This document shows, piece after piece, positions 140 through 64,000 of a stretch of DNA of 64,000 nt; position 1 is the stretch's first letter; each line of letters starts with the position of its first letter. The DNA is taken from NCBI GenBank assembly GCA_951406725.2, contig OX597820.1:109616001-109680000 (forward strand), written 5' to 3'. Source of the DNA: Octopus vulgaris (Eukaryota). The notes beneath the pieces are model-generated. The model was not told the origin of the DNA and ran no database searches. It saw only the letters and a program-made list of their open reading frames with translations. The position numbers and the translations under genes are program-made.

Positions 140-282
140 TACGACGGGCTTCTTTCAGTTTCCATCTACCAAATCCACTCACAAAGCTTTGTTCGATCTG
201 AGGCTATAGTAGAAGACACTTGCCCAAGGTGACACGCAGTGGGACTGAACCCGGGACCATGTGGTTCATAAGCAAGCTACTT
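139..282 (-). mobile_element. tRNA-derived SINE, 5' part
   Basis: Minus strand has B-box GGTTCAGTCCC followed by CACCTTGGGCAAGTGTC. Related copies lie at 34085-34450 and 45472-45846. Confidence 0.8.
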
Positions 283-492
283 TATTTCATGAAAGATTCG
301 CCATTAAGGCGTTACATAGAGGGAACATACAAATACAGACAAACATATAGGGTGTAGTAGCTTAAAATATTGGTGATTACAATAAAATATATATAATATT
401 TACAATATAAAGTTTTTAAAATTTGGTATTATACAGTAGGGCACGGATCCCTGCCATCCGGGTAGAACCTTTACTTCTTGATCCGGCCATGC

Positions 493-3400
493 TTACCTGG
501 TGCCAGATATACCCAGCTTGCACGCTACAGACTTTCATCTTTTCGCAAACATATCTCGTGACAGACACCTCTTCTCCAGCCTGATCTTACTACTGAGGTG
601 GTAATTGAAAAATTTGACCAACCCCTGGCCGGATACAAAGGTATCTGTCACTATACCTTTCGTACGCGTCTTCCTACTACGCAGGAAAGACAAGCCTTCC
701 TTTCCCTGCTGAGGAAGGTAGGTGGCACAATCTCAATGATAGACTCTGCTGATAGCTGTACTCTTCCATTCACTGACAACAGTTGTTTGGCGAAAGCAAT
801 CAGTGCCGATAACTCCGGACACTCCACGAATGCGTGCAAGATGGTTTCCCTATCCTGCTCACATCGCGGACATGTCGGCGAGACGGCACTTCTGTGCCTT
901 GACAGCTTGTCGCGAACAGGTAACGCCGCACAGAAACACTGCCAGGCCAGGGATTTCTAGTAATTATCCAGGTACCCCGGCCCGAACGTTCTCCGGAACA
1001 GGTTGGTCAACTGATTTTCATCGTAGCCCAGGGTCTCCCCCAAGGCGTCTTCGGACTTAACCTCCACTAACCCGCTATAGAAATCCGCGGTGGAACTCCT
1101 GTTGCCGGCATTGCCCGCCCGAGAGAGTAGCTGAAGTGCCTGATGGCATTCCAATTGCCAGTCCCCAAGCCTAGGTCTCTGCGTGATCCAATTACCAATG
1201 TCCGTTAAGGACGTTAATCGCGGATGGTAGAACCGAACATGCGGTGACCACACCTGTTTGCCATCCAAGTAAAGCCAGAGGTGCCTCAACCTTCACGCGA
1301 CCTTTCGCATCTTCAGCCAAGGCATCCCTAGCCCACCCTTTAGCGGTTTCTGGCAGCAGACAGAGCGCTTTACAAGTGGCTTCCCTCCTTTCCACAAAAA
1401 GTGGAAAAGGATTCTCTCCAACTTGTTCATCCACAAATCGGGGCAAGGCACCACGGTCAGGCGGTAGGTGACTACTGATGCTATGAACATCTGCACCACC
1501 TCCGCCCTCCCTAGCAGGGATAACGCCCGTCCAGACCAGGTCTGGTTTAGAGCGGTCACCTTGCCGGCCACCTCATTCCAATTTTTCTCTATCTGGAGAT
1601 CTGGCCCGAACCAGACTCCGAGCAGCTTAACAGGACCTTCCGTCCAACGCCCCACGACGTTATTGGACGGCATCGGCTTGCCCCTCCAGGTGCCGAGTTG
1701 CAAACCGACCGACTTGTCCTTGTTCACCTTTGCTCCTGCCACCGCCTCGTAGCTTTTGATGGCCTCTTCCACCACTGGAAGCTGGTCCTCATCTGCCACG
1801 GTGATGGAGATGTCATCTGCGTACGCCGTAGCTCCTCTTCCACACCATGGATCATGCGGTGCACCCCCTATTGCCTCCAATTTCCGTAGCAAAGGCTCAA
1901 GAGCCAACACATATAGAGGAGGGGACAGGGGACACCCCTGACGAACTGAACACTCGATCCTGAACGGCTTCGAAAGGGAGCCGTTCACCTTGACCACAGA
2001 CTCAATGTCGCTATACAAAGCAGCGATCCAACCTCGAAAGATCGGGCCCAGGCCAGCCTCCCCGAGTACCGCTGCCAAGTACTGATGGTCAACCCTATCA
2101 AATGCCTTAGACTGGTCTAAATGTACCAGTGCCCCTCCTGCGCCAGAAAGCTTCCCGACCCTCTCTAAGGAGTAGTGTATAAGGTGGAGATTGTCGTGTA
2201 TCGTCCTGCCCAGGATAGCGCACGTTTGCACTTCTCCGACAAGTTTATCCATAACCCGCGCCAACCTTTTCGCCAGCACCTTGGCCAAAATCTTTAACTC
2301 TGTGTTCAGCAGAGTTATGGGCCTGAAGTTGCCTATCTCGTCCCCCTTGCTCGGGTCCTTCCTGATTAACGTCACCACACCCCGGCTCGCAGACTTGGGA
2401 ATTTTCCCATTCTGCTGCCAGTCGGCGAAGACGCTAGCCAGCAGGTGCCCGAACAAGTCTGGCATACTTTTAAAAAACTCATAGGGCAGACTATCGAGAC
2501 CCGGCGACTTCTCCCCGGGGCACTCACCCAACGCCTCGATTACTTCCTCGGCTGTGATTGGCCCCTCACAGCACTCAGCCTCTCGTGCCGAGAGACGCGG
2601 GCCACCAGACAGGAAGTCCCTAAGGGCCTCACCATGATCTAGCGTCCCGCACCTCCTGAACAACTCACCGAAGTGCTTGTAAAGTGCCTCACACATCTCG
2701 TCCTGCTCCTTCACCGTGCATCCGTTTCCGTCAACAAGAGACCTAATTGTGGCATTGTTGCCACGCTGGGTTTCTATCGTACGGGCCCAATTAACATTAA
2801 TTCCCTCGCGGCCCAATGTTCGTACTTTAGCCCAGACTCTACACCCCTCATGTTTGGTTTTGAGGTGACGGTCTAATGCCGTTCTTGCCGCCAAAATGTG
2901 AGATGCATAGCCCAACCTCAACGCCTCCTCTAACTTCTTTGCTAATTGCCCTTCTATTCTAGCCCTATCTAGTCTTAGTTGCTTACTAAACCTAATGGAC
3001 TCGAATCGAATGGCTCTTTTCAGGGCGAACCACCACCGGTTATTAACCATGGCTCTGGTTAACGCCCTCTGCACTAACTCCTTAATCCGACTGCAGTATG
3101 CCTCACAAGTCAAAATAGACTTGTTCAGCTTCCAGTAGCCGTTTCCTATCTTTAGTGTGCTATCTATGTCCAGTCTACACTTGACCATTCTATGGTCCGT
3201 ATAGGGTACCTGGACAAGCTGTGGACAACTAAAACTAGACTTATCTCTAGTTCTTATCACTATCCTGTCTAGATAAGACTTGAACCTTCCGTCGCCACTC
3301 ATCCAGGTCCACTCTGGGACGTTGGGATGGTCAAGTCTGTAACAATCTGCCAGCTTAAGCAGGTCCACGAGACGTGAGTTCACTTTCCTATTGATCGAGC

Positions 3401-3860
3401 CAACACTATCGATGTGTATGTCAACGATAGCATTAAAGTCTCCTAATACTACTAAAGTCTTCAACGTCACGAGAAAGTTCTCTAGGCGCTGATAAAAATC
3501 AGTTTGGAAGCCTCTAGCACAAGGTGCATAGAGTCCGATCAACCTGAAGGCCTTACTGCTGTATGTCACATCAAGGACGACCAGCCCACCTTCAGGGTCC
3601 ACATAGTCTGTACTTATCTGCAGAGCCAAACTTTTACGGATCAGTACCACTACGCCCCCTCGTCCTCCGGTCTGACCGGGAGACATGATTTTCTCGTAGC
3701 CATTCAGGAGAGGCGAGAAGGTTTGTAGACTGTCCAGCTTGGTCTCTGTAGCAACCATCACATGCATATCATGTGATCTGAGATCGTCGAGGAAACACGC
3801 CTGCTTCCACTTCGAACTCAGACCACGCACATTCAAACAACCAAGGTTAAGAGACGCCAT
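493..3860 (-). pseudogene. E1 ORF2 (endonuclease-reverse transcriptase), frameshifted in its 3' third
   Basis: 855-aa ORF 1293-3860 continues in 957-1289 and 651-839, then FVSGQGLVKFFNYHL... to TAA at ~493-495. Confidence 0.9.
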
Positions 3861-3881
3861 TACAAAAAGTAAAGGTTCTAC

Positions 3882-5379
3882 TTACATTTCTTTGGAGATG
3901 TTGGGGATGACCTCACCACACGTGGATCCGTCCCCTTCTTCTCCTCTCTCTTCGCGTAATTCGGTAAATCCACAATCTTCCATATGGCCTTCTGGTTTCT
4001 GTCCTTTAGTTCCCGGTATAGGGGTTCTTCTACCATTGCACTCATGTTGTTGCGTGTACAGCATAGTCTTTTTGTGTTTTACAATGGCGTCATTTGTATA
4101 TGTGTCTGTCGTATCGTATTCTATTAACATAGTATTTTTGTTTTCTTCCGGGACAGATGGGCAGGGTTTCTTTTTTGTTGTCTGTGGTGCGTTTTTTCTG
4201 TTTTGTGTGGGGGATATGGGTGGGGAAAGGTCTACGGAAATGTTTCTTTCCCACTGGTGTGAATCCACCCTCTGAAACCTCCATGGTACACATGGTCTGA
4301 GGGGTTGGTGGCAGTTTCTTTCGGTGCAGTGTTTTCCGTTGGTGCCGTGTCTTCCAAGGGGGTTGGGTCATTTTGTTTATGTAGGGACTTGTGCATGCCG
4401 GGGCTGGGTTTTTCTGTGCTTTGTTTGGGGACTAGCACCTCAACAATGGGGATGGGAGTTTCTGTGTTTGTGGGGGTTGGTGTGTTTGAGGGGGCGGGTT
4501 TTTTTGGTTATTTGAGGGGCCTGGTGTGTGCAACAACTTTTTTTTTTCTTCACAGTCAGCTCGAATGTGGCCCTTTTTTCCGTAATGGTAACAGGTGGGC
4601 TTACGGCCTTCCACATGTACCCTAAGGGCCACATTCTCCCCAACGAGTACTCTCTCTGGTAGGGCCTGAATGTCCTCCTGTTTGCCTTGTATTAAAACCG
4701 TTATGTTCCGCCCTAACCACATCTGTGGGGCGGAACTTGTGGTCTGTAATATGTTTATCCGGTCCGTCCTATTAAACAACAGGCCGGCCACCACTTCTTT
4801 CGGGTCTACTGTGGGTGGGATTTCATTAATCCTTACACGGGATGTTCGTCGCCCCATGTACGTTGGCAAAAGTACCACTTCCTTGGTCTTCAGGGGGCAC
4901 ATGGAGTGCCCGCGAGCCACCTTTTCCTCTGAGAATTGAACTTCAACGGATCCGTATGCCCATCCCCTCGAGATATACACTATATCCCTCCATATCGGGG
5001 CCAGGCATTTTTCAATGGTTTCCTTCCCAAAGTGCTTTAACCTTTTGTCTTGTGGGCAGAAGGTTTTAAACACCACGGTCCTCTTTTCCGTTTCTAGCAC
5101 GGTGGAGGAGGGCGATATCACAACATCACCTCCCTCCTCCTTCATTCTTTTAAAATATCCCTGCAGCATGTCTGCAGAGATATCTATATTTTCGGTTGCT
5201 ACTTCGGCGACTGCCGAAAACTTTTTAACAGCGTTGGCGCAATTGCCAACATCAACATTGCTCTCTTCAAGAGTAGATTTTTCATGTATTATTTCAACCG
5301 ACATGGTTGAAAAGTAATTGGTTTCCCACAAAACTGGGAGACCTTTCGAAAAAAGAAATTTTCCTCTCACAGAGGACAA
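3882..5379 (-). pseudogene. E1 ORF1 (gag-like RNA-binding protein), frameshifted
   Basis: ORF 4432-5379 has an RRM-like region (SRGWAYGSVEVQF) and a zinc knuckle; a low-complexity linker leads to C-terminal segment 3882-4268. Confidence 0.8.
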
Positions 5380-5699
5380 AAGTAATTAATTTTTAAATGC
5401 TCACAGTCCCAGGTTCAAATCCCACCCCCGTTGGGGTGTGAAATGTAGCAACAAAGTCTACGACGATTTGAAGTTATTTTCCAGCACAATGAAATCCCCA
5501 AAAACCTATATTTACACGACAACAACAGTTCAAATCTCGCCCGTGCTACGGGTGGATGTCACAATAGAGCCTACAATGGTTAAAATAAATTTTTCACACC
5601 AAGAATTTGTTATCCCAAAAACGGGAAGCCTATAATATTTTTTTTTTTGCCTATATATATGTATGTATGCATATATATGTGTTCGTGTGTGTGTGTAAG

Positions 5700-16509: not shown

Positions 16510-16530
16510 AGACTGGAATTGTTAGCTCTT
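16510..16530 (+). repeat. Left copy of target sequence agactggaattgttagctctt
   Basis: Identical 21-mer at 28197-28217; partial copies at 26266-26285 and 22048-22057. Confidence 0.85.
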
Positions 16531-19500
16531 ATTTCTTTATTCACCATACGGTTATACATATAAAGACAGAACATCACAAATGATTTTACATGAATATGCG
16601 TTGGGGTCTATTAAAAATTTACAAATGAATATATAATTCGGATGATAGGACATTTTTTACACAAGCAATTTCACAGATGGAGTGGGGCGGGCTTACGGAC
16701 CCCACAAACCCCGCCACGACACTGATCTTAGGTTTTTTTCCTTCTTTTTTTTCCGGCTTACCTCGCATTTATGAGGGTCCTTTTACTCACAACATTCTTC
16801 CATCTTTCATCGAACACTTTCTTACTCAGGCCCCTCCTCTCTTGTTCTATTTGTCTTTTTAGGTGGAATTTAAAATATTCCACCAGACTAGAACCAGAGA
16901 TGAAGTTGCCTGCTATCACCCCTTTCATCCTCGTCTTCCATACTGCCTGTTTCGCAATTGAAACCACAGAGAGAAAACAATTCTTACCTTCTTTCGTTAA
17001 GAAATCCGGTGGGTCAATTTTTACAATGGATTCAGTCGATAGCTGTACTCTTCCTCCACTTGACAACAGTTGTTCGGCAAAAACCCACATGTCTGCCACC
17101 TCCGAGCACTGCACGACCGCGTGCGAGACGGTTTCCCTGTCTCACCCACACCTCGGACAGGTCGGGCTGACTTGGCCACCATGCCTTGCGAGTTTATCCC
17201 AAACAGGTAAGGCTCCTCGGTAACACTGCCAAGCTAAGGACTTCTGAAAATTATCCAGGGTCCTCGGCCCAAATGTACGTTGGAACAGACTGGCCAGCTG
17301 ATTATCGTCGAAACTTAGGGTTTCCCCTAATGTATCATCGCAACTGACCTCTACAAACCCTCTATAGAAAACAGCGGTAGAACCACTGCCGCAGGCATTG
17401 CCCGAGCGACGGAATAGTCGGAGTGCCTTGCGACACTCCGTATACCATGTATCCAACTTCGATCTGCGATTATACCAGGCTTCCCGTCCACCAAAACTGG
17501 TGAAATTGGGAAACATCTGTTTCGCCAACGGAGACCACACCCGTTCACCATCCAGATGGAGCCACAGATGCCTTAACCTCAGCGCATTTCTGCGCATCAT
17601 TAGCCACGGCATCCCTAGTCCACCCTTTAACGGTTTTTGACAACAAACAGAGCGTCTCACAAGTGGTTTCGAGCTCTTCCACAAAAAGTGAAAGAGCTGT
17701 CTTTCCAACTTGGTCAACCACGAATCCGGGCAAGGCACGACGGTAAGGCGGTAGGTGATCACCGATGCGATGAACACATTGGCTACCTCCGCCCTGCCTT
17801 TCAGGGATAACCACCGCCAAGACCAGGTCTTGGTTACTGCAGCTACCCTGCTCGATACCTCGCTCCAGTTCTTCTCTATTTGGAGGTCTGGTCCGAACCA
17901 AACCCCGAACAACTTAATCGGACCCTCTGTCCAACGTCCCACGACGCTGTCTGAAGGCATCGACTTGCCTCTCCAGGTGCCGAGCTGCAAGCCGACTGAC
18001 TTTTCGCGATTAACTTTTGCTCCTGTCACCGTCTCGTAAACCTCTATGGCCTTGCCTACTTTACGTAGGAGGTCCACTTCAGTCACGATGATAGTGATGT
18101 CATCCGCGTACGCCGAAACCGACATTCCACGACCTGGCTGCCTCGGGATGCCACTCAGTTTTCGCAGCAGCGGCTCGAGAGCCACTACATACAAAAGCGG
18201 GGAGAGTGGGCATCCTTGACGAACCGAGCATTTGACTCTGAACGGCTTAGAAATAAAGCCGTTCACCCGAACTACCGAGTCGACGTTATCGTACATTTCG
18301 ATGATCCACCTGAGGAAGCCAGGCCGAACTGAGCCAGAACAGACACCAGGTAATGATGGTCGACCCTATCGAAAGCTTTTGATTGGTCTAAGTGGACCAC
18401 TGCCCCTCCCTTGCTGGGATCGCTATTAATTCCCTCTATAGTGTATCTAATTAGATGGAGATTATCCTGAATGGACCTGCCAGGTACGGCACACGTTTGT
18501 GCCTTCCCTATTAGTCCATCCGCGACACGCGCCAATCTGTTTGATAACACTTTGGCCAAAATCTTCAGCTCTGCGTTAAGCAGAGTGATGGGCCTAAAAT
18601 TATCAATGACATCCCCCTTGTCCGAGTCCTTCCTGATTAGTGTCACCACTCCCCGGCGCACAGATCTGGGAATAAACCCATTCTGCTGCCAGTTCGCATA
18701 GACGTTCGCCAGTAAGTCCCCGAACAAGTCCGGCATACTTTTATAAAGCTCGTAGGGTAGACCATCCAGTCCTGGCGCCTTACCCGCGCCGCAGTCATCC
18801 ATGGCCTCTATTACTTCCCCAGGCGTGATCGGCTCCTCACTACACTTCGCGTCCTGCTCCGAGAGGCGCGGCAGCCCGTTGAGAAGGTCCGTTAGGCCCC
18901 TCCTCCTATCCGGTCCGCCGCTCCCCCCAAAGAGCTGGGCGAAGTGGTCCTGAAAAGCCTCACACATCTCCTCGGGCTCGTTTATCAACTTACCTTGTTG
19001 GTTCGTCAAAGATCGAATTGTGGCATCGTTGCCACATTGGGCTTCCACCACTCGGGCCCATCTCGCGGCATTAATTCCTTCGCTCCCCATTGCATGTTGT
19101 CTAGCCCTGACAATGCAACCCATGTGTTTGGCTTCGAGGTGCTGGTTTAAAACCAGTCTCTTGACCTTCACCTGGGCTGCCGTGCCAGTTCGCATTGCTT
19201 CCTCTAAGTCCTTAACTAGTGCTGATTCCCTTCTAGCCTCTCTAGCTACTAGATCTATACTATATCTAATGGACTCATATCTGATGGCTCGCTTGAGGGC
19301 ATACCACCATTTGTTGTTAATTATGATTCCGGTCAAAGCCCTCTGAATCATTAACCTTATCCTGTCACTGTACTCCTTAATCGCCAAAAGGGACGTATTA
19401 AGTTTCCAGTAACCAGGACCTCTATTCGTCTTATCTATGTCTAGCCTACAGGTGACCATCTTGTGGTCACTGTAGCTGACCATGTGGAGCTGTGGACTCC

Positions 19501-21812
19501 TAGCTAGTTTCTTATCTACTTTTCTAATTAATATCCTGTCTATGTACGACTTGATAGATCCGTCGCTATTTGACCATGTCCACAATGGAGCGTTCGGATG
19601 TTCCAGTCTATATGGATCTACCAGCTCGAAACATCTTAGTAGATCCTGGAAGCAAGCATTTCCTTTCCTATCTGTTCGCGAGCCCTCACAGTCTACCCGC
19701 ACATCGTAGACTGTGTTGAAGTCTCCTAAAACAACTAAAGGATGCGATGTACTCAGAAACTTTCCAAGGTTCCGAAAATAATCACTTTGTTCCCCTTGAC
19801 TGTGGGATGCGTAAACCGCAACCAGCCTGATTGTCTTACGACTACTGAACGTCAAATCAACGACGACCAGTCTACCTTCTGGATCTGAAAAAATCAACTT
19901 TTTCTCAGAAACCCGGTTCTTTTTACACAGGACCAACACCCCGCTTCCGCCGGACAGACGGCTCGGAGAGATAATTCTCTCGTAACCGCTGAACAGCGGG
20001 AGCGGATCTCTTCGCCCCTTTAACCAGGTTTCTGTGGCAACAACAACATCTAAATCCCGTGACCTGATGTCATTTAGGAGGCGCCCTTGCTTCCAGTTCG
20101 TCACCAGGCCACGCACATTTATGCACCCTACATGAACACGAGCCATCACCTACCTTTTAGTTGGTTTTCCTTTTTTCCGTTTGTCGTGGGGGGAAGTCTG
20201 CATTATACAACGACTCGTGCAAGTCGAGACGCAGACCTCTGATGTCTTTTGGGTATTCCTCATGTATAATGTTGTAATTTAATCTGTCGATTTTACACAC
20301 TTCTACATTTTTGGGCAATACCCTGTAAGTTTGAATTTTTTCTGCTGTTGGGGCTTCATTAATAAGTTTCACCAACCTATCGTTATCTTTGTTTATTGAG
20401 ATGTACACCATCTCTAATCCTTCCATGTTTTTCTTTGGGCTTTGTGGGGGTGATGGGGGGGACGGCGGGAGTAGTTTGGGAGGGGAGGGAATTGTTCGAC
20501 ACTGGGAGGTGGGGGTGGTTGTTCGGGTTGGGTTGGGGGGGTCTTCTCTTTTTTTTTCTTTTGTGTGGAACCGTGGTTGGGTGGGGTGAATTTTCCCCCC
20601 TGTGTGTTATTTTTCTTTTTGCTTGTGCATGGGGTGGGTGGGTTCAAGTCTTCATTTTTTCTTTTTGGTGTTTTTTTCTGCCTCACCAGTGTGAAGGCAT
20701 TTTCTTCTTCTGTTGTTTTCTCTTCCACCGTTTCTTTTTTCCTCTTCTCCTCTGCTTCCGTCCTTTTTCTCTCTTCTTCTTTCTTGCGGGTGGGGCAGTC
20801 TATACGGATGTGGCCTTTCTCACCACATCCGTAGCATCGAGGCTTTCGCCCCTCCACCACCACCCGCAAATTTATTTCATCGCTGAAATTGATATTTTCT
20901 GCCACCTCCTCCAACGTCTCTGGGGCCGCCTGTACTGTCACTTGAAGAGTTTGACCTCTCCAATTCTCCATCCTGACCTTTGTTATCGCTATAACACTTA
21001 TTTTTTCTTCCAGCCCCATTAGTAAGGCTGGAAGCAACCACTTCGCCTCGATTTCTGGCGGTATGTCCTCGATCCTTATTTTGGCGGACCTCCGCTCCAA
21101 ATAGGAAGGCAAGAGAACAATGTCACTCGCCTTAATTGGGGTTAGCGAGTGCTTTCTTGCCATTTGCTTGCTCTTAAAATATACCACTATTGTGGCGTAC
21201 TTTTTGCCCCATGTCACACAGTCTATGTCTTGCTATATTGGTTGCAGACACTTCTCTGCCTGTTCCTTTGTTACTCTTTCGATTTTTTTCTCTTTTATTA
21301 CAAATGATTTGTAAATCACAATCCTTCTCTGTGTTTCATTTTTAATTTCTTCTGGGAGGGTGGCTTTTATATTATTCCCCTCCCTTACAAACATAGTTTT
21401 GTATTTTTCATATTCTATGTCCTACATCTTTATCTCTTCCGTCTTCCGTCCGGCGGCGGCTGCGAAGTTGTATGTTTTAGCTTGTTTTCCTTCAATAATT
21501 TTAGCTGCAGACACAGCTACACTTGAAGGCGAACCTTCGATAACTTTAGCTGCGGACACAGCTACACTTGAAGGCGAACCTTCGATAACTTTAGCTGCAA
21601 GCACAGCTTCACTTGAAGGCGAACCTTCAATAATTTTAGCTGCAGACACAGCTACACTTGAAGGCGAACCTTCGATGACTTTAACTGCAGGCAAACCTGC
21701 TTCACTTGAAGGCGAATCTTCGTCACTTGAAGCGACCAGTGTTTCCACATCAAACAACATGTTTTTTTTTGACTTCATGTCTTTTTTGTTCATTTTTTCC
21801 ACAAATGTAGTG

Positions 21813-21856
<44 letters not shown>

Positions 21857-22047
21857 TTTTTGTTTTTGTATGTAACGTGTAGCACTTTTCCCCTCCGTAA
21901 GGAGGGGAATAACAATATCTCTTGTTATTACACCAGACGTTCAAAAGTTCAAACAAAACAACAGTTTCTTTAACAAACGCTAAACAGTTACTTACAAATT
22001 ACTGAAAATACCACGCTTCAAATACGGGAAAAATCAGACATCAATTG
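16531..22047 (-). mobile_element. Tx1-type LINE E2, full length, few frameshifts
   Basis: ORF1 pieces 21422-21802, 20414-21217 (CYGCGEKGHIRIDC) and 20157-20426. ORF2 pieces 18272-20149, 17142-18296 and 16758-17114 with EN, RT (AYADD) and zinc finger. Confidence 0.93.
21490..21730 (-). repeat. 45-bp coding minisatellite in the E2 ORF1 N-terminus
   Basis: About five copies encoding EGSPSS(V/E)AV(S/L)AAK(I/V)I. Confidence 0.85.
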
Positions 22048-22057
22048 TGGAATGGTT

Positions 22058-25000
22058 TTATTATTACCCACAAGGGGCGAATATAGAGGGGACAATACAA
22101 CCTGATGTGGGGTCAGATTCTCGGATGGAGTTACAAAAAAGATGAGATTAAAAATTCACAAAAATACAAAAAATATAAAATCGAATGAAGAACAGACCGG
22201 AAGACATTACGGATGGAGTGGGGGCGGGTTTAACTCGGACACCACGAGCGCCGCCTCACCACTGATACTTTGGTTTCGTCTTGTTTTACATTTATGTGGT
22301 GTCATCCATTCGCAACTTTCGTGCTACATCCTTCCATTGTTCTTCATACACTCTCTTAGTCAGGCATTTTCTCTCCAGCCCTATCTTCCTTTTCAGGTGA
22401 AAGATGAAGTAATTCATCAAACCAGGGCCGGATATGAACTTGCCTGACCGTAAACCTTTCATTCTCGTCTTCCATATCACCTCTTTCGCAATTGCTACCA
22501 CAACGAGAAAACAATTCTTACCTTCTTTCGCGAGGAAATCTGGTGGGTCAATTTTTGTAATAGACTCAGTCGACAGCTGTACTCTTCGTGTGCTTGACAA
22601 CAGCTGTTCGGCATAAACCCACACCTCAGACACGACCGAACAATGAACAATAGCGTGCGGGACGGTTTCCCTATCCCGCTCGCATCTTGGACATATCGGA
22701 CTGTCTTGGCCACCGTGCCTTGCGAGTTTATCCCGAACAGGTAGAGCTCCTCTGTAGCATTGCCATGCCAGAGACTTCTGGAAGTTGTCCAGTGTCTTCG
22801 GCTCGAACGTACGTCGGAACAGACTGGCCAGCTGATTATCGTCGAGACCTAGGGTTTCCCCCAAGGTATCTTCACATTCCGCCTCTACCAACCCTCTATA
22901 GAAGAATGTGGTAGAACCCCCACCGTAGGCGTTGCCCGAGCGACGGAATAGCAGGAGAGCCTTGTGACACTCCGTGTACCATGTGCCTAGTTTCGATCTA
23001 CGATTCAGCCAGGTTTCCCATCCACCGAAACTAGTGAACTTGGGAAACATCAGTTTTGCTAGCGGAGACCACACCCGTTCACCATCCAGGTAGAGCCACA
23101 GATGTCTTAACCTCAGCGCATGTCTGCGCATCATCAGCCAAGGCATCCCTAGCCCACCCTTTAACGGTTGTTGACAGCAAGTAGAGCGTTTCACAAGTGG
23201 TTTCCCGCCCTTCCACAAGACGTAGAAGAGCTGTCTTTCCAACTTGATCAACCACGAATCAGGGCAAGGAACAACGGAAAGGCGGTAGGTGATAACCGAT
23301 GCGATAAACACATTGGCTACCTCCGCCCTCCCTTTCAGGGATAGCCACCGCCAAGACCAGGTCTTGGTTACTGCAGCCACCCTGCTCGATACCTCGCCCC
23401 AATTCTTCTCTATTTGGAGGTCTGGACCGAACCAAACCCCTAGCAACTTAATCAGACCCTCCGTCCAATGTCCCACGACGCTGTCAGGAGGCATCGACTT
23501 GCCTCTCCAGGTGCCGAGTTGCAAGCCAACTGACTTTTCGCGATTAACTTTTGCTCCTGTCACTGTCTCGTAAACCTCTATGGCCTTGCCTACTTTACGT
23601 AGGTGATCCATTTCGGTTACGATGATGGTGATGTCATCCACGTACGCTGACACCGATTTTCCACTACCTGGCTGTCTCGGGATGCCGCTCAGTTTTCTCA
23701 GTAATGGCTCAAGAGCCATCACGTACAAAAGCGGGGAGAGCGGACACCCTTGACGAACCGAGCGCTTGATGTTGAACGGCTTCGACAAGAAGCCGTTCAC
23801 CCGAACTACCGAGTCGATGTTGTCGTAAATTTGGATAATCCACCTGAGGAAGCCAAGGCCCAGCCCGAACTGTGCCAGGGCAGATACCAGGTAGCGATGG
23901 TCGACCCTATCGAACGCTTTAGATTGGTCTAAATGGACCAGTGCCCCACCCTTGCCAGAATCACTATTAAACCCCTCTATAGTGTACCGCATAAGATGGA
24001 GATTATCCTGAATGGTTCTGCCGGGAACAGCACATGTCTGTGCCTCCCCGATCAGACCATCTGCGACACGCGCCAATCTTTTCGATAACACTTTGGCCAA
24101 AATCTTCAACTCTGTGTTTAGCAGAGTGATGGGCCTGAAATTATCAATGCACTGCCCCTTGCTCGGGTCCTTTCTGACGAGTGTCACTACTCCCCGGCGC
24201 ACAGATCTGGGTATGAACCCGTTCTGCTGCCAGTTCGCATAGACCTCCACCAGTAGGTGCCCGAACAAGTCTGGCATACTCTTATATAACTCATAGGGTA
24301 GACCATCTAAACCCGGCGCCTTGCCCGCGCCGCAGTCCACCATCGCCTCAACCACCTCCCCAGGCGTGATTGGCCCTTCACAGCCCTCCGCATCTCGCCC
24401 CGATAAGCGCGGCAGCCTGTCGAGGAGGTCCGTAAAGGCCCTCCTCCTATCCAGTCCGCTGCACTCACCGAAAAGCTGAGCGAAGTGCTCCTGAAAGGCC
24501 TCACACATCTCCTCGGGCTCGTTTATCAACTCACCTTGTTGGTGCGTCATAGATCGAATCATGGCGTCGTTACCACGCTGAGCTTCCACCACTCGGGCCC
24601 ATCTCACGGCGTTGATTCCTTCACAACCCATTGCGCGGATCCTAGCCCTGACAATGCAGCCCATGTGTTTGGCCTCGAGGTGCTGGTTTAACGCCAGTCT
24701 CTTGGCCGCCACCTGAACCGCAGAGCCAGTTTTCAAGGCTTCCTCTAATTCCTTAACTAGATTAGATTCCCTCCTAGCCTCTCTAGCCACTAATCCTATG
24801 CTATATCTAATTGACTCGAATTTGATGGCTCGCTTGAGGGCATACCACCATTTGTTATTAATGATGGCACCAGATAGCGCCCTCTGTACTCCTTAATCGC
24901 CAAAAGGGACGTATTAAGTTTCCAGTAACCGGAGCCTCTATTTTTAACCTTATCTATGTCAAGCTTACAGGTGACCATTTAATGATCACTGTAGCTGACC

Positions 25001-26265
25001 AGGTAAAACTGTGGACACTTAGCTATTTTTCTGTCTACTTTTCTAATTAGTATCCTATCTATATATGACCTGGAAGATCCGTCGCTGTTTGACCATGTCC
25101 ACAATGGAGCGTTCGGAAATTCCAACCTATAAGGATCTGCTAGCTCAAAGCGGCTTAGCAGTTCCAGGAAGCCAATGTTACCTTTTCTATCTGGACGCAA
25201 GCCAACACAATCTACATCCGCTTTGCAAATTGTGTTAAAGTCTCCTAGCACAACTAATGAATGCGAAGTACCTCGGCTTTCTGCCCTCCACAAACACTAG
25301 CACCCTCTCCTCCTCGCTGAGCCTCAATATCTCCGGTATTTCTTCTAACGTTTGGACCTCCGCCTGAATCGCCATTGTGATACATTGGCTTTGCCAAAAC
25401 CCCTCCTCCTCTACTGTAGCCTGGAGGATAGTGATCTTGTCCTCCAGGCCCAACATCACTGCCGTCACCAGGCATGTGGCGTCCGCTTCTGGCGGAATAT
25501 TTTTCATTAATATTTTTGAGGTCCTTCTGCCTCTGTACAGGGGGAGAAGGACTATATTCTCCGCTTTTTGAGGTTCGGTTGATAGCTTCTTGGCTATCTC
25601 CTCAGTCCTGAACCTCACCTCAACTGTTCCAAACTTTCTGCCACGGTTTATATACGTAATGTCTTTCCTTATTGTCTTCAGACAATCCTCTATTTTTTTT
25701 TCCTCCACTCTTTGAATGCTTTTCATTGTTGTATTGTATGTCTTGTAGATAATCCTTTTTCTTTCTACTTCTTCTTTCTTTCTGACGTCTGATTCCACTG
25801 CTATTTCATTTCCTTCCTTTTTTCAAAAGTGCTTCATACTTTTCTAGGTTGCTCTTATCTGTGTTGATTTTTTTTTGTTTTTTTCCTGCAACTTCTGCGA
25901 ACTTCTTCACTGGGGCCTCTTCTTTTTCCGGCGTCACCGCCGGTGAACTTTCTTCACCTGATACAGGTGAATATGAGATAGGAGTCTCCATCTCTGGATG
26001 TGGCTTTACAAGCCTTTTCAATTGGCTTTAACAAGCCTTCAAAAATTTTGGCTTCACAAGCCTTTTGTGTATATTTTAAACTGTTTCACAACAATTATAT
26101 CAAAACAATTCCCCCGTGGGGGGGGGGGGGGAATTTTAATACGTAGCCTTCGCGCGAAGGCTACTAACAGTTTTTACACAGAAACACAATATATATAAAA
26201 CAAAGTAACAATAGTTAAATTCACAAACCGGTAATAAACAGCAAAATGACAAACACAGACTGGCG
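22058..26265 (-). mobile_element. Tx1-type LINE E3 with an internal deletion joining ORF1 to mid-endonuclease
   Basis: ORF1 25806-26021 and 25270-25798 stops at VEGRKPR and jumps to GTSHSLVVLGDFN. ORF2 22292-24790 has AYVDD and CPRC..H..C. Confidence 0.92.
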
Positions 26266-26285
26266 TATAACAGACTGGAATTGTT

Positions 26286-28196
26286 TTATTCCTACCCACA
26301 AGGGGCAACATAGAGGGGACAATACAATCGGGAAAAAAATAATATAATGAGTTATGGAATTTGTACAATGTGGTGTAATGCCCACTCGATCCCTGAAATC
26401 GAGTGGTTACATTTCGTCATTTTTTTTCTCAAAGATACATTTCACAATAAAATTCAAAATCATTTTACATATATTTCAAAAGAATTTTCAGAGTGTATTA
26501 TCACTTCAACATTTTGCAGAATTTAAAATTCTTTTCACCAATAAAGTTTTCAAATAAACATTTTCTTTTTTAAATAAATTCCATTACCTCGACCAAATCT
26601 TCATAGATCTCCATTGTTCTTGGCCACCTTACAAGTTGGCATTTCATGTGTTTTAACACGTTCTTACCGGCTGCTTCGATGAATGCATCGGCGCCGTCCT
26701 CGTGGACTAGTGCACCCGTTTCTTTCCATTCGGTACCCGTCCTGACCCATGTGTATCCATCTGTTTCGTTTATCACATTTTCCATCTCCTCACAATGCCT
26801 GTGATAGACCAACGTTCCATAGAATTTGTATCGCCTGTTCTCTCTAGTCTTCCTCTTAGGACTTATTTCCTCTTTGCTCTCCTCTCTCGGTTTCTCTCTT
26901 TCTCTCTTTTTGTTTTCTCTTCTTTCTTTTTCCTTCTCTTGTCTTTTTGGCTCTTTGTCTGTCGTCTCTCTACCCTGTGCCTTATCTTCCTTTCCTGTTG
27001 TTTCTTTTTCTTTTCATGTGCCATCTTTTCCTTTCTCTTGCTTCTGTTCCTTCTCTTGTTTTTTCCCTGTTTTTTCTCTTTCCTTTAGTGTACTTTCCTT
27101 TTCTTTCTCTTGATTCTGTTTTGGTTCTTTCTCTATTACTTCTTTGCCCTGTGAATTTTGTTCCTTTTCTATTAATTTCTTCCCTTTGATTTCATTTTCC
27201 TTCAGTGTGTTGTTACTTCCTTTCTCTTTTTGTTTCACCGTTATTTCCTTTTCCTTGCTTTCGCTGTTCTTTCCTTCGTGTTCTTTTTATTCTCTTTTTT
27301 GTTTTCTTCCGTTGTCTCTCCACTTTGTGTCTTTTTTCGCTCCATTTCCTTCTCCGCTGTGAATTCATATAGCGGACATTCCTTTCTTATGTGTCCTCTT
27401 GACCCACACAAGTAGCAGTTCGGCTTTCTCCCCTCCACTATCACGGCCATTGTTCTCTCATTTTCTAGTTCAATTTGGAAGGGAAACCTTTCTATGTCTT
27501 CTATTGTGGCCATCAGCCACATTTTCACTCCGAATCCCTTCCAGTTCACAACATTGGTCTCCTTGATCGACCCTATTTCTATTTCCTCCTTTGCTGCCCC
27601 AATAATGGCTGTTACCAGCATTTCTGTTTTAATTTCTGGGGGCACCTTTGGGACTCTTACTCGAACCCCTCTTTTTCCTTTATATGTAGGCCACATGATG
27701 AAGTTTTCAGCTTTTAGTACCGTGGAAGCTAATGAGGCCGCAACTTCTTTTGTTGCGCATTTCACCTCCACTGTACCATATTTCTTTCCTCTGTTCACGT
27801 ACGTTGCCTTTTTCATAATGTCCCCCAGACATTTCTCAATTTCTTCTATCGTTACTCTCACCAATTTTTTTGTAATCCTGTCTTGCGTCCTGTACGTTAT
27901 AGTCTTATTATTTTTTTCTTCTATCGTTTCAGCAGGTGGGACTAGCTTTATGCTGTCACCCTCCCTTTTGATGAATTTTTCATAATCAAATAATTGTTCT
28001 TTTCTAAAAAACACTTCTCTTACTATAAGAGGCTCATCACTTTTCGTTGCGGCGACCCCCGCGTAAGTCTCCATGACTTGAGGGTCGACGCACCTTCTAT
28101 AATAAGGTTCCAACACGTGGCGGCAAGAACCTCACGCGATTCAACTTTTTTTCCAATTTAACAGTTCACACAAAAATTAACTAACCAACTCGATGA
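26286..28196 (-). mobile_element. ORF1-only Tx1 derivative E4 (HAL1-like non-autonomous element)
   Basis: ORF1 27241-28116 (NRGKKYGTVEV; CYLCGSRGHIRKEC), K/E-rich linker and C-terminal segment 26570-26812. No ORF2. Terminal ~42 nt shared with E3; 14-bp duplication agactggaattgtt on both sides. Confidence 0.8.
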
Positions 28197-28799
28197 AGAC
28201 TGGAATTGTTAGCTCTTCTTTTTTCTCTACATTGTATACTTTATAGACAATAGTCTTTTCTTTAATTTAATTTTTTATTATCCATCTGGACTATTCCATT
28301 TCTGCATGCTAATTTTATTTTTAATTTATTCCCATTCATGTGAAACCACTTATTCAAGTTCAAATCATTGATGCAATTTTATACCAATTGCTATTTTTAC
28401 TTTTGTTATATTATACTTTAGTTTGATTTTAATTATTACTTACTACATATAATTCAATTGTTATTATTATTTTTATTGTTAAAGTGAAAGCATCTGACAT
28501 AAAATAGAGAAATACTTTTGTTTCACTTTTAACACGTAATACTGAAATAGTGGAGAAGATATGATATTGCTATGGGCTCGCTCTAGGCAAGAAGTTGAAC
28601 ATTTTTTTTTGCCCATGAAACTACATGGACCCTAAGTAAGGCATGTGTAAAATTTGAAGGAAATTGGTTGTGTAGTTCTCAAGTTTTAGGGAAACACACA
28701 GACAGACAGACACACATTCTCAGTTTTATATATATATAAAGATATATTTATATGTATGCATATGTATATATATATATATATGTATGTATATGTATATAT

Positions 28800-61292: not shown

Positions 61293-61571
61293 GTTTGAAT
61301 ACTATATTTGAGGGGGAAAAATAATTAATTAGATAAATGACTGAATGAAAGCCAGAGAGAGAATGAAAATAGATAAATAATAAAAAATACGGTAGAGAAT
61401 GGAAATAGATAAATAATGAAAAAAAAAAAAAAAAAAAAATACGGTAAGAGACGAGGGGGCATATTGACTTAGCTGGCCATTTTTGGAAGTCTGTGTTTTC
61501 TCTGAAGGTGTAGCGAGTGAATAGGGATCAGATACGATCGCTCGCGTGGCTTTTAGGGAGGGGGACGGAAA

Positions 61572-61611
<40 letters not shown>

Positions 61612-62047
61612 TGAATACTATATTTGAGGGGGAAAAATAATTAATTAGATAAATGACTGAATGAAAGCCAGAGAGAGAATGAAAATAGATAAATAATAAA
61701 AAATACGGTAGAGAATGGAAATAGATAAATAATGAAAAAAATACGGTAGAGAATGAAAATAGATAAATAATGAAAAAAAAAAAAAAAAAAAAAATACGGT
61801 AAGAGACGAGGGGGCATATTTTCGGAGGAGAATGGGATAAACATCGAAGAATGGCACTGAAGGAAAATAAACTTTAAAAATGCAATGCATGAAGTCGCCA
61901 TGTTTAGAGAATAGGGGAACGAAGGGAGAATAGATCAAGCTATCCAAACAAAACGCTTAAAAATATGAAAAGAGCAGGATGAAATTGACTTAGCTGGCCA
62001 TTTTTGGAAGTCTGTGTTTTCTCTGAAGGTGTAGCGAGTGAATAGGG
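61293..62047. repeat. Locally duplicated purine-rich non-coding blocks
   Basis: 61293-61464 recurs at 61610-61820; 61463-61527 recurs at 61985-62047. Confidence 0.8.
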
Positions 62048-64000
62048 TATTTCTTTATTATGATTATAAAAATCGATTACACAGAAGGACAAATACAGGA
62101 CATATATACAAAAAAACATTTAAGAGATTCGATTAAAAATTTTCATTTACATTGGGATTATTCATTATAACATAAATGTCCTTTACATAACCCGTATAAC
62201 AAACATCAGTACATGAACTTATAATCTCACTGGAGTTTTTACACCCCGGCAATTTATGAGGCCCTGCAGCTTTTATTTCCTCTCCTTCCTCCATGGTCAA
62301 GCTGGGTTTCTGACACCCACCTTTTTTCCACTTCCTTCCATCTTTTCTCATACACACCCCGCGGTAAGATCCTCTTTTCCAGCCCCATTTTGCTCTTCAG
62401 ATGATATCTGAAGTAAGTGAGCAAGCCGGGGCCGGAGACAAAGGATCCTATCGCGGCTCCTTCCATTCTCGTTCTCCACATACATTCTTTTACTACTGCA
62501 ACCGTGCAGTGAAAACATGCCTCACCTTCCTTCGAGAGTCCAGTTGGCGGTATCATCTTAATCATAGACTCAGCCGACAGCTGTACTCGTCCCAGATGCG
62601 ATAACACGTGTTCTGCGTAACTTATCAAGTCGGACAACTTCCGACAGTGAACAAAAGCGTGCTGGACGGTTTCATCGTCCAACTCGCACCTTGGACACGT
62701 CGGTGGCACTGAAACTCCGTGCCGCGATAACTTCTCGCGAACAGGTAAAGCATTCCTATAGCACTGCCAGGCCAGGGATCTTTGGAAATTATCCAAATAC
62801 CCCGACCTGAAAGTTTTTTTAAACAGGTTGGTAAGCTGGTCTTCGTCAAACCCCAGAGCCCCTCCTAGGACGTCGTCGTTTTTTAACTCTACCAGCTTTC
62901 TATAAAATACTGAGGTGGTATTTCCGCAGCCGGCCTTGCCCGCCTTGTGGATCAGCGTGAGTGCCTGTCGGCACTCCTTTTGCCATGGAGTCAGTTTCCA
63001 TCTTTTGATGTAACCGGGTTTAAAATTCACTAAGGAGGCCGGTCTCGGGAAAAATCCCCCTGCCAGCGGACTCCACACCTTATCACCCTCCAGGTGGTGC
63101 CAGAGATGCCTTAGCCTCAACGCATGTCTGCGCATCATCAACCAAGGCATTCCTAACCCACCCTTTAACGGTTCCTGGCAGCAAACGGAGCGCCTCACAA
63201 GTGGCCTTCCTCCTTTCCACAAAAAGCGGAAAAGGATTCGCTCCAACTTGTTAAGCCATGAATCGGGGCAGGGGACAACGGTCAGGCGGTAGGTGATTAC
63301 AGATGCAATGAACATCTGCACCACCTCCGCCTTTCCTTTCAAGGACAGAAACCTTCCGGACCAGGTCCGTACTATGGCTTCCACCTTGCTTGTCACCTCA
63401 CTCCAGTTCTTCTCCGTTTGGGAGTCTGGCCCAAACCAAACTCCCAGCAACTTAACAGGGCCATCCGTCCAGTGTCCCACGACACTGGACGATATCGACT
63501 TGCTCCTCCAGGTGCCGAGGCGCAAGCCAACCGATTTGTCCTTGTTAACCTTTGCTCCTGCCACCGCCTCGTATCCTCTGATAGCCTCCTCTACACAAGG
63601 TAGTTGGGCCTCTTTGGACACGATGAGGGTGACGTCATCCGCATAAGCAGTAACCGTCCTCCCACCTCCGATTTCATCCGAGTTACTCCCCAGCCTCTCC
63701 AACCTTCGCAGCAATGGCTCAAGAGCCAATACGTACAAAAGTGGTGACAAGGGGCACCCCTGACGCACTGAACACTCGATCGAAAACGGTTCCGTTAGGT
63801 AACCGTTTATCTGGACGGTGGACTTGATGCCGCTATACATAGCGGAGATCCACCCGCGAAATTCAGGGCCCAGCCCAGCCGCTTCGAGGACCGTCGCCAG
63901 GTACCCATGGTCTACCCTATCGAAGGCTTTACTTTGGTCTAAATGGACCATTACCCCGCCTTTGCCGGCTAATTTACCCACCCTATCTAAGGTGTAGCGT
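62048..64000 (-). mobile_element. Tx1-type LINE E5, 3' part; continues beyond the window
   Basis: Uninterrupted ORF2 C-terminal half; 3' terminus AATAAAGAAATA. Confidence 0.93.
62254..63981 (-). CDS. E5 ORF2 C-terminal half (RT and CCHC zinc finger), open to the window edge
   Basis: HLDQSKAFD, QGCPLSP, AYADD and CPRCELDDETVQHAFVHC, with no stops over 575 aa. Confidence 0.85.
   Translation of the reverse strand: MGKLAGKGGVMVHLDQSKAFDRVDHGYLATVLEAAGLGPEFRGWISAMYSGIKSTVQINGYLTEPFSIECSVRQGCPLSPLLYVLALEPLLRRLERLGSNSDEIGGGRTVTAYADDVTLIVSKEAQLPCVEEAIRGYEAVAGAKVNKDKSVGLRLGTWRSKSISSSVVGHWTDGPVKLLGVWFGPDSQTEKNWSEVTSKVEAIVRTWSGRFLSLKGKAEVVQMFIASVITYRLTVVPCPDSWLNKLERILFRFLWKGGRPLVRRSVCCQEPLKGGLGMPWLMMRRHALRLRHLWHHLEGDKVWSPLAGGFFPRPASLVNFKPGYIKRWKLTPWQKECRQALTLIHKAGKAGCGNTTSVFYRKLVELKNDDVLGGALGFDEDQLTNLFKKTFRSGYLDNFQRSLAWQCYRNALPVREKLSRHGVSVPPTCPRCELDDETVQHAFVHCRKLSDLISYAEHVLSHLGRVQLSAESMIKMIPPTGLSKEGEACFHCTVAVVKECMWRTRMEGAAIGSFVSGPGLLTYFRYHLKSKMGLEKRILPRGVYEKRWKEVEKRWVSETQLDHGGRRGNKSCRAS

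Follow-up and report, generated by a model that had tools for sequence, protein, structure and literature searches.

Comparison with Described Systems

How long interspersed nuclear elements (LINEs) translate the second of their open reading frames (ORFs) at a low level from a bicistronic RNA is an open question. In the silkworm non-LTR retrotransposon SART1, reviews report that an RNA structure is needed for reinitiation at ORF2 (Kojima et al. 2005; PMC5972666, PMC10275272). Mammalian LINE-1 (L1) is described as translating ORF2 across a 63-nucleotide (nt) inter-ORF spacer (Alisch et al. 2006; PMC5972666), and review accounts of LINE ORF2 translation name only the downstream structure of SART1 and this unexplained crossing of the L1 spacer. 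Among plant viruses, readthrough in carnation Italian ringspot virus is reported to need RNA-RNA pairing over more than 3.5 kb (PMC13517186). Full-text searches of an open-access library, which did not take in the primary SART1 and L1 papers, found no pairing between the inter-ORF spacer and the 3' untranslated region (UTR) described for a LINE. Such a pairing is predicted for E1, a decayed LINE on the minus strand of a 64,000-nt window of Octopus vulgaris DNA (assembly GCA_951406725.2, contig OX597820.1, positions 109,616,001 to 109,680,000; coordinates below are those of the window), and it is tentatively read here as a clamp that gates ORF2 reinitiation.

Complementary Sequences at Both Ends of ORF2

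A repeat search of the window returned an inverted repeat with arms at 462-480 and 3863-3881, each 19 nt long and 95% complementary, the same arms that a preliminary description had reported as identical at 18 of 19 positions. Both lie within E1, and on the element strand they form an unbroken helix of 19 base pairs (bp), with 18 Watson-Crick pairs and the one G-U pair described earlier, here U-G (-27.1 kcal/mol). The loop of this duplex would be ORF2. The 5' arm begins at the ORF1 stop and ends 2 nt ahead of the ORF2 AUG; the first base of the 3' arm is the 13th past the ORF2 stop, as had been described, and about 3.4 kb separates the arms. The exact 15-nt core occurs in the whole window only at these two places. 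The CCGG reported on each side of the 3' arm is present, as part of a longer 6-nt direct repeat, CCGGAT. A spacer of 21 nt, also reported, holds if ORF1 ends at TAA 3884-3882 but not if it ends in a second open frame whose TAG lies inside the arm.

Folding calculations favor the duplex. A co-fold of the two regions gives pair probabilities of 0.99-1.0, in a calculation that omits competition from ORF2 and is partly complemented by a ranking of helices. In that ranking the duplex is the longest of 1526 unbroken long-range helices of at least 9 bp in E1; it stands first once opening costs are included (-16.4 versus -14.4) and second on raw energy. When the local 3' UTR is folded by itself, most of the 3' arm is left unpaired in the centroid structure. 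Among 6197 windows of 30 nt from the five Tx1-like elements of the window (E1 and its relatives E2 to E5), the best partner of the E1 spacer is its own 3' arm, the next locus reaching -19.6. The long-range interaction bracketing ORF2 that had been proposed is thus upheld as a prediction. An Rfam scan gave no gathering-score match and nothing on either arm at E values up to 1, a tRNA scan found none, and no related loci were found in metagenome or viral contigs, either by protein or by spacer pattern.

Shuffling tests address the perfection of the match. No 19-mers with 18 Watson-Crick pairs arose in 150 block-wise dinucleotide shuffles of the element, no unbroken 19-bp helix with at least 17 Watson-Crick pairs in 471 shuffles, and no comparable match of spacer to 3' UTR in either of two sets of 2000, one with the spacer shuffled and one with the 3' UTR shuffled. 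The complementarity of the arms and their placement are not due to chance.

Variation among Family Copies

Parts of E1 are present in 20 of the 24 sequencing runs listed, under four organism labels; 10 of the 24 are guessed to be RNA. Five runs (X1, X2, X8, X9, and X10) were aligned, organism C not being among them, and for the region 3805-3955 differences were listed from 3% upward in four (X1, X8, X9, and X10, from organisms A and D), where percentages are shares of summed contig depth and not copy number. Within 3860-3885 a single substitution reaches at least 3% in these four runs, a C-to-U change on the RNA at 3874 (85% in X1, 88% in X9, 53% in X8, and 100% in X10). It turns a C-G pair with the E1 3' arm into U-G, and the duplex is still predicted (-24.4). 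The spacer arm is therefore the family majority except at 3874, and it is about as steady as coding sequence. The flanks are variable at 19 of 61 nt (p 0.005), though the depth is not the same. Six differences common to at least four diverged contigs all fall outside the 26 nt of 3860-3885 (p 0.027, post hoc).

The 3' arm shows no fully fixed difference among the 40 of 735 variant places listed, each of which has at least one run at 100%; positions 452, 490, and 491 are among them, none of 462-480 is, and neither is 3874 itself. Across its many near-fixed differences from the family (again the 40 of 735 listed), E1 keeps all 19 pairs. Absence of the match from the family consensus, which the preliminary description held would count against an interaction, was not observed for the spacer arm. 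In all four runs some contigs depart from the E1 alignment at 3851; their spacers are different ones, U-rich as well, and these contigs represent a sister subfamily.

The End of ORF1

The last 165 nt of the frameshifted E1 ORF1 contain two open frames. One, closed by TAA 3884-3882, shares the frame of ORF2. The second runs to TAG 3880-3878, which lies within the arm, and beyond it would next be stopped by the TAA that overlaps the ORF2 ATG. A crude codon model scores the TAG frame +6.6 and the TAA frame -0.6, and synonymous read variants lean weakly the same way (3/12 versus 1/12), with 3 also in the third, closed frame. A profile of ORF1 C-terminal homologues and direct alignment to E2 and E4 assigned neither frame to E1. 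A representative search returned 349 ORF1 homologues, none of them close (best 38% identical), and a word-based search returned none. The ORF1 stop may be the TAG within the arm rather than the TAA before it; in either frame the helix starts at, or contains, the ORF1 stop. A by-eye motif likeness of the ORF1 end was dropped, as the profile and the E2 and E4 alignments gave no frame assignment.

A Putative Clamp on ORF2

The reading favored here, with a confidence that falls somewhat short of even, is that the duplex is a selected long-range clamp, melted by ribosomes terminating on ORF1, that gates reinitiation on ORF2. The arms would pair into the predicted helix and loop out the whole of ORF2, and this helix, closed by default, would mask the way to the start codon of ORF2. 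Because the ORF2 AUG is 2 nt from the helix end, loading there would need the spacer arm to be free. A ribosome at the ORF1 stop would already have unwound most of the helix, so that a ribosome finishing ORF1 would melt it and could restart on ORF2. A ribosome that has reached the ORF2 stop would only just come into contact with the helix, still intact. Such a gate would exist only on RNA with a 3' end, tying ORF2 synthesis to RNAs of that kind, and would set the ratio of ORF1 to ORF2. If gating is true, a 19-bp helix with defined ends would couple ORF2 synthesis to whether the 3' end is present.

Readthrough or frameshift fusion of ORF1 to ORF2 was considered and ruled out on geometry. The ribosome at the ORF1 stop, having unwound most of the helix, argues against readthrough, and the net gaps of +2, +3, +4, and -3 that diverged contigs carry across the spacer region make a fused ORF1-ORF2 product unlikely.

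Several observations weigh against a selected clamp. With G-U pairs free, 15 of 120 shuffles contain an unbroken helix of at least 19 bp somewhere. Tested against the 3' UTR in full, the spacer window comes 7th of 4788, and comparable energies (-27.8 and -28.5) are found for unrelated element pairs. Duplex energy alone is ordinary; the match stands out by its placement and by being Watson-Crick perfect over a stretch rich in AU. At a uniform depth threshold the spacer has 1 variable place in 26 and the flanks 8 in 51 (p 0.26), and adding 3805-3835, which holds an endonuclease motif, gives 1/26 versus 8/82 (p 0.68); the excess of spacer conservation over the flanks is not firmly significant. 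A single U of the arm is missing from one X1 contig, which makes up 6.5% of depth. No covariation is shown, position 469, the partner of 3874, lying outside the 40 of 735 variant places listed, and 8 of the 19 possible arm transitions would keep a pair, so that a single pairing-neutral change is weak evidence. Two stop frames, TAA and TAG, remain candidates for the end of ORF1. In E2 the 10-nt spacer and the 3' UTR show no pairing (ranks 1634-4722 of 5032 over four windows), and pairing is not general across the Tx1-like elements of the window. One sister spacer, followed by an ORF2 start that is almost that of E1, makes a poor match to the 3' arm of E1 (-9.6), and nothing ties it to E5.

A broader proposal is doubtful. 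It holds that in a cephalopod group of Tx1-like LINEs the helix looping out ORF2 might be rebuilt with different sequences from one subfamily to the next, E1 using its own arm and the sister spacer a 3' UTR of the E5 type. The clamp would then be a long-distance control of a virus-like kind, licensing translation of ORF2 on full-length RNA alone and not before ORF1 has been terminated. This sister spacer can form 16 bp with E5 at about 62263-62279 (-15.4), which is in the top 0.5% of the 6197 windows, the ninth locus, and post hoc. The partner lies 17 nt past a TGA that would be the E5 ORF2 stop if a 1-nt slip is allowed. This possible pairing was first noticed by eye, five elements being compared; it also counts toward the clamp reading of E1, but as a lead only. 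The segments after the ORF2 stops of E2, E3, and E5 have no partner at the inter-ORF position of E1 or E2.

Alternative Explanations

The main rival, itself fairly unlikely, is a neutral inverted copy. In the master element of the family, one arm would have been copied into the place of the other by a brief templated inversion or insertion, and would have survived because neither place is coding, with the spacer conserved for some other reason such as a U-rich reinitiation context or a U1 site. Direct repeats of 6 nt bracket the 3' arm, as they would an insertion, and the missing pairing in E2, the poor fit of the sister spacer to E1, and the lack of observed covariation are as expected of such a copy. 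Only non-coding places tolerate a copy of this kind, which explains part of the placement. On the other hand, E2 shows GCCGGA and a run of purines at the corresponding position past its ORF2 stop (by eye), which suggests that part of the 3' arm predates the E1 family; among the 12 of 14 indels listed, none is a 25-nt gap at 456-486; and E1 keeps all 19 pairs despite its many near-fixed differences from the family. If the copy is neutral, the duplex is a curiosity of one family.

As a quite unlikely alternative, the RNA would escape nonsense-mediated decay (NMD): with the 3' end folded back by the helix, the distance from the ORF1 stop to the polyadenylation signal would be about 175 nt plus the helix, and not 3.6 kb. 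Engineered foldbacks of 20-30 nt are reported to suppress NMD in human cells (PMC2689704), a length that the arms match, and L1 expression is reported to rise on UPF1 depletion (PMC4982230). However, two engineered constructs are described as pairing from 28 and 42 nt past the stop (PMC2689704), whereas E1 pairs at the stop, where a terminating ribosome, with 11-12 nt in its entry channel, would have melted most of the helix; this weakens the foldback. In addition, the 3' arm is 175 nt from AATAAA and does not adjoin it.

Control of splicing or of U1 binding is improbable. The helix would bridge or mask two donor-like sites, either splicing out ORF2 to leave an ORF1-only mRNA or protecting the full-length RNA. 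Scored over nine positions against the 5' splice-site consensus, E1 has only two sites of at least 8/9 in 5260 nt (13 of at least 7), one at each ORF end, and at the ORF2 stop the family majority is a 9/9 match. The arm covers +5 and +6 of the first site. E2 has such sites too, 8/9 at the spacer (20148-20156) and 7/9 at the ORF2 stop (16756-16764). Yet a TAA after G yields GTAA for free, and the E3 ORF2 stop lacks such a site. Two contigs from runs guessed to be RNA (X8 record 12 and X10 record 9) bridge 3885 unspliced with at least 31 letters on each side, and none of eight X8 and X10 records breaks at 3885, a weak result as contigs drop rare forms and may be DNA. Judged from the motifs, U1 may possibly bind the ORF-end sites of E1 and E2 without splicing.

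Slightly less probable still is a closed loop in which ribosomes ending ORF2 are handed back to its AUG, or new ORF2 protein is delivered to its own 3' UTR in cis preference. One end of the helix faces both the ORF2 AUG, at 2 nt, and the ORF2 stop, at 12 nt, the latter distance being one entry-channel length. Loading of a 40S subunit on the AUG would nevertheless require unwinding of the arm, the need for ORF2 is described as small (PMC3894237), and ORF2 protein is already completed beside the 3' UTR without any loop.

The preliminary description also proposed that the repeat promotes reverse transcriptase (RT) jumps that delete ORF2 and create ORF1-only elements such as E4. The geometry of a stall at the helix and a jump from 461 to 3882 fits, giving a clean ORF1-plus-3'-UTR product if ORF1 ends at TAA, and HAL1, ORF1-only derivatives of L1, are reported to have arisen several times in mammals (PMC5753468). 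As an explanation of the repeat it is nonetheless very improbable: among 18 of 58 loose ends listed none is at 3880-3886 and none is an ORF1-3'-UTR junction, no joints were seen, and depth is even across 3877-3894. If the TAG is the stop, a jump would remove it, and jumping would be a consequence of the repeat rather than a reason for it. E4 itself does not support the proposal: its ORF1 is 32% identical to that of E1, and it matches E3 only in its last 36 nt, which are 94% identical to the E3 end. These identities indicate that E4 belongs to another family and is not a derivative of the E1 family. A chance match is scarcely credible: G-U-permissive shuffles and a scan that reads many elements leave some room for it, but none of the 471 shuffles gave the helix with at least 17 Watson-Crick pairs, and the places matched are the spacer and the beginning of the 3' UTR.

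Features and Classification of E1

E1 is in the L1/Tx1 group of APE-type LINEs, with an APE endonuclease followed by an RT and its closest relation to L1. Pfam finds Exo_endo_phos and RVT_1 in its ORF2, and the closest solved structure is human L1 ORF2p (211 bits, E 2.5e-61), with R2 at 81 bits. A zf-RVT domain was found in the paralogue E3 and in homologue P0001; the scan left out the broken C-terminus of E1. The ORF1 proteins of E2 and E4 have zf-CCHC; none was found in E1, where the knuckle reads CYHYGKKGHIRADC, and Pfam detected no RRM in ORF1. The Tx1 clade is described as having a type I ORF1 with a CCHC zinc knuckle (PMC5203782) and a target-sequence preference (PMC4494074). No named Tx1 reference protein was among the homologue or structure matches to ORF2, and the Tx1 label given to E1 earlier is plausible. 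An Argonauta hians protein, 48% identical, is among 14 ORF2 homologues, which points to a cephalopod as host, and L1-Tx1 is listed among cephalopod repeats (PMC8967140). By eye, no target duplication was found at E1.

Table 1. Coordinates of E1 and of its parts in the window
Feature	Position	Strand	Remarks
E1, decayed two-ORF L1/Tx1-group LINE	281..5530	-	5' limit approximate; 3' end at AATAAA 286-281, no poly(A)
ORF1	3878..5304	-	ATG 5304; several frameshifts; end at TAA 3884-3882 or TAG 3880-3878
5' splice-site-like AAT|GTAAGT	3880..3888	-	Overlaps TAA and first two arm bases; 8/9 to consensus
Predicted duplex, 5' arm	3863..3881	-	Takes up 19 of the 21 nt that separate TAA 3884-3882 from the ORF2 ATG; is the family majority apart from C to U at 3874
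TAATG	3858..3862	-	TAA, in frame of TAG 3880, overlaps ORF2 ATG 3860-3858
ORF2, APE endonuclease and reverse transcriptase	493..3860	-	Premature stops at about 1295, 958, and 650; TAA 495-493
5' splice-site-like CAG|GTAAGC	491..499	-	Over ORF2 stop; CAG|GTAAGT in contigs of 4/4 runs
CCGGAT direct repeats bracketing the 3' arm	456..486	-	Copies at 486-481 and 461-456
Predicted duplex, 3' arm	462..480	-	12 nt past ORF2 stop
Rest of 3' UTR	281..461	-	GC-rich stretch, AT-rich stretch, AATAAA; duplex would bring this region beside the ORF1 stop

Other Elements in the Window

Four elements of the window are related to E1: E2 with two ORFs, E3, E4 with ORF1 only, and E5, a 3' part. An internal deletion removes the E3 spacer, and that of E5 lies outside the window. 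The ORF2 sequences of E2, E3, and E5 are 69-72% identical to that of E1. All five end at or just past AATAAA without poly(A) (281-286, 16530-16545, 22060-22070, 26285-26295, and 62050-62065). A stop overlaps the ORF2 ATG in E1 (TAATG 3858-3862) and in E2 (TGATG 20144-20148) and abuts it in the sister spacer; in E1, E2, and sister copies this is not the first ORF1 stop. A C-run/G-run hairpin with ACG in its loop occurs in the 5' UTRs of E1 (5419-5445), E3 (26110-26140), and E2 (21885-21910), and is significant in E2 only (z -5.4).

E4, E3, and E2 lie head to tail at 16511-28210, with AACAATTCCAGTC at three junctions (28198, 26273, and 16511), a match count reached by 0 of 100 shuffles. The motif may be a shared target or a target duplication, and it was matched to no known RNA here. 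By its shared 36-nt end, E4 (26270-28185) would be a HAL1-like non-autonomous partner of the E3 family. E2 and E3 (16530-26260) are 83% identical in ORF2, whereas their ORF1 proteins are only 39% identical, which suggests swapping of ORF1 between families. The end of the E2 ORF1 (20157-20423) is a small domain common to six homologues. The 3' flank of E5 (61300-62050) appears by eye to contain a local duplication of a few hundred bases.

Likeness to Known Mechanisms

SART1 offers the nearest parallel, as described in reviews (PMC5972666, PMC10275272). Like E1 it makes a bicistronic LINE RNA with UAAUG at the ORF2 start, and a structure downstream of its ORF1 stop is needed for ORF2 translation. 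In SART1, however, the UAAUG is the ORF1 stop, whereas ORF1 of E1 stops 17-21 nt earlier; the E1 stop and start do not overlap in the SART1 manner, since the frame of UAAUG 3862-3858 is closed by TAG 3880-3878 five codons earlier, and no variant that removes this TAG was present in the four-run contigs. The review accounts of SART1 give no 3' UTR partner, while the E1 partner is 3.4 kb away, after ORF2. Mammalian LINE-1, of the same L1 group, has a short spacer too and is described as crossing it by unconventional reinitiation; its ORF1 is of a different type, and the accounts cited mention no pairing of spacer and 3' UTR.

The resemblances to other systems are more partial. ORF1-only HAL1 (PMC5753468) is a counterpart of E4, which is tied neither to the E1 family nor to the duplex. 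The engineered poly(A) foldback (Eberle et al. 2008, PMC2689704) also brings a 3' end near an early stop by 20-30 nt of pairing, but it is artificial, and its pairing is described as lying 28-50 nt past the stop and immediately ahead of the poly(A) signal, unlike E1. Carnation Italian ringspot virus is reported to pair over a similar distance, at the first stop of a two-part RNA. That pairing drives readthrough, whereas the E1 helix starts at the stop without an 8-nt spacer and ORF2 has its own AUG. The helix lies 0 nt past TAA or contains TAG, and ORF2 is in frame only with TAA 3884, an arrangement that departs from tombusvirus-type readthrough. Sharing the defining features of neither, the E1 clamp would work like SART1 reinitiation or like a plant-virus long-distance element.

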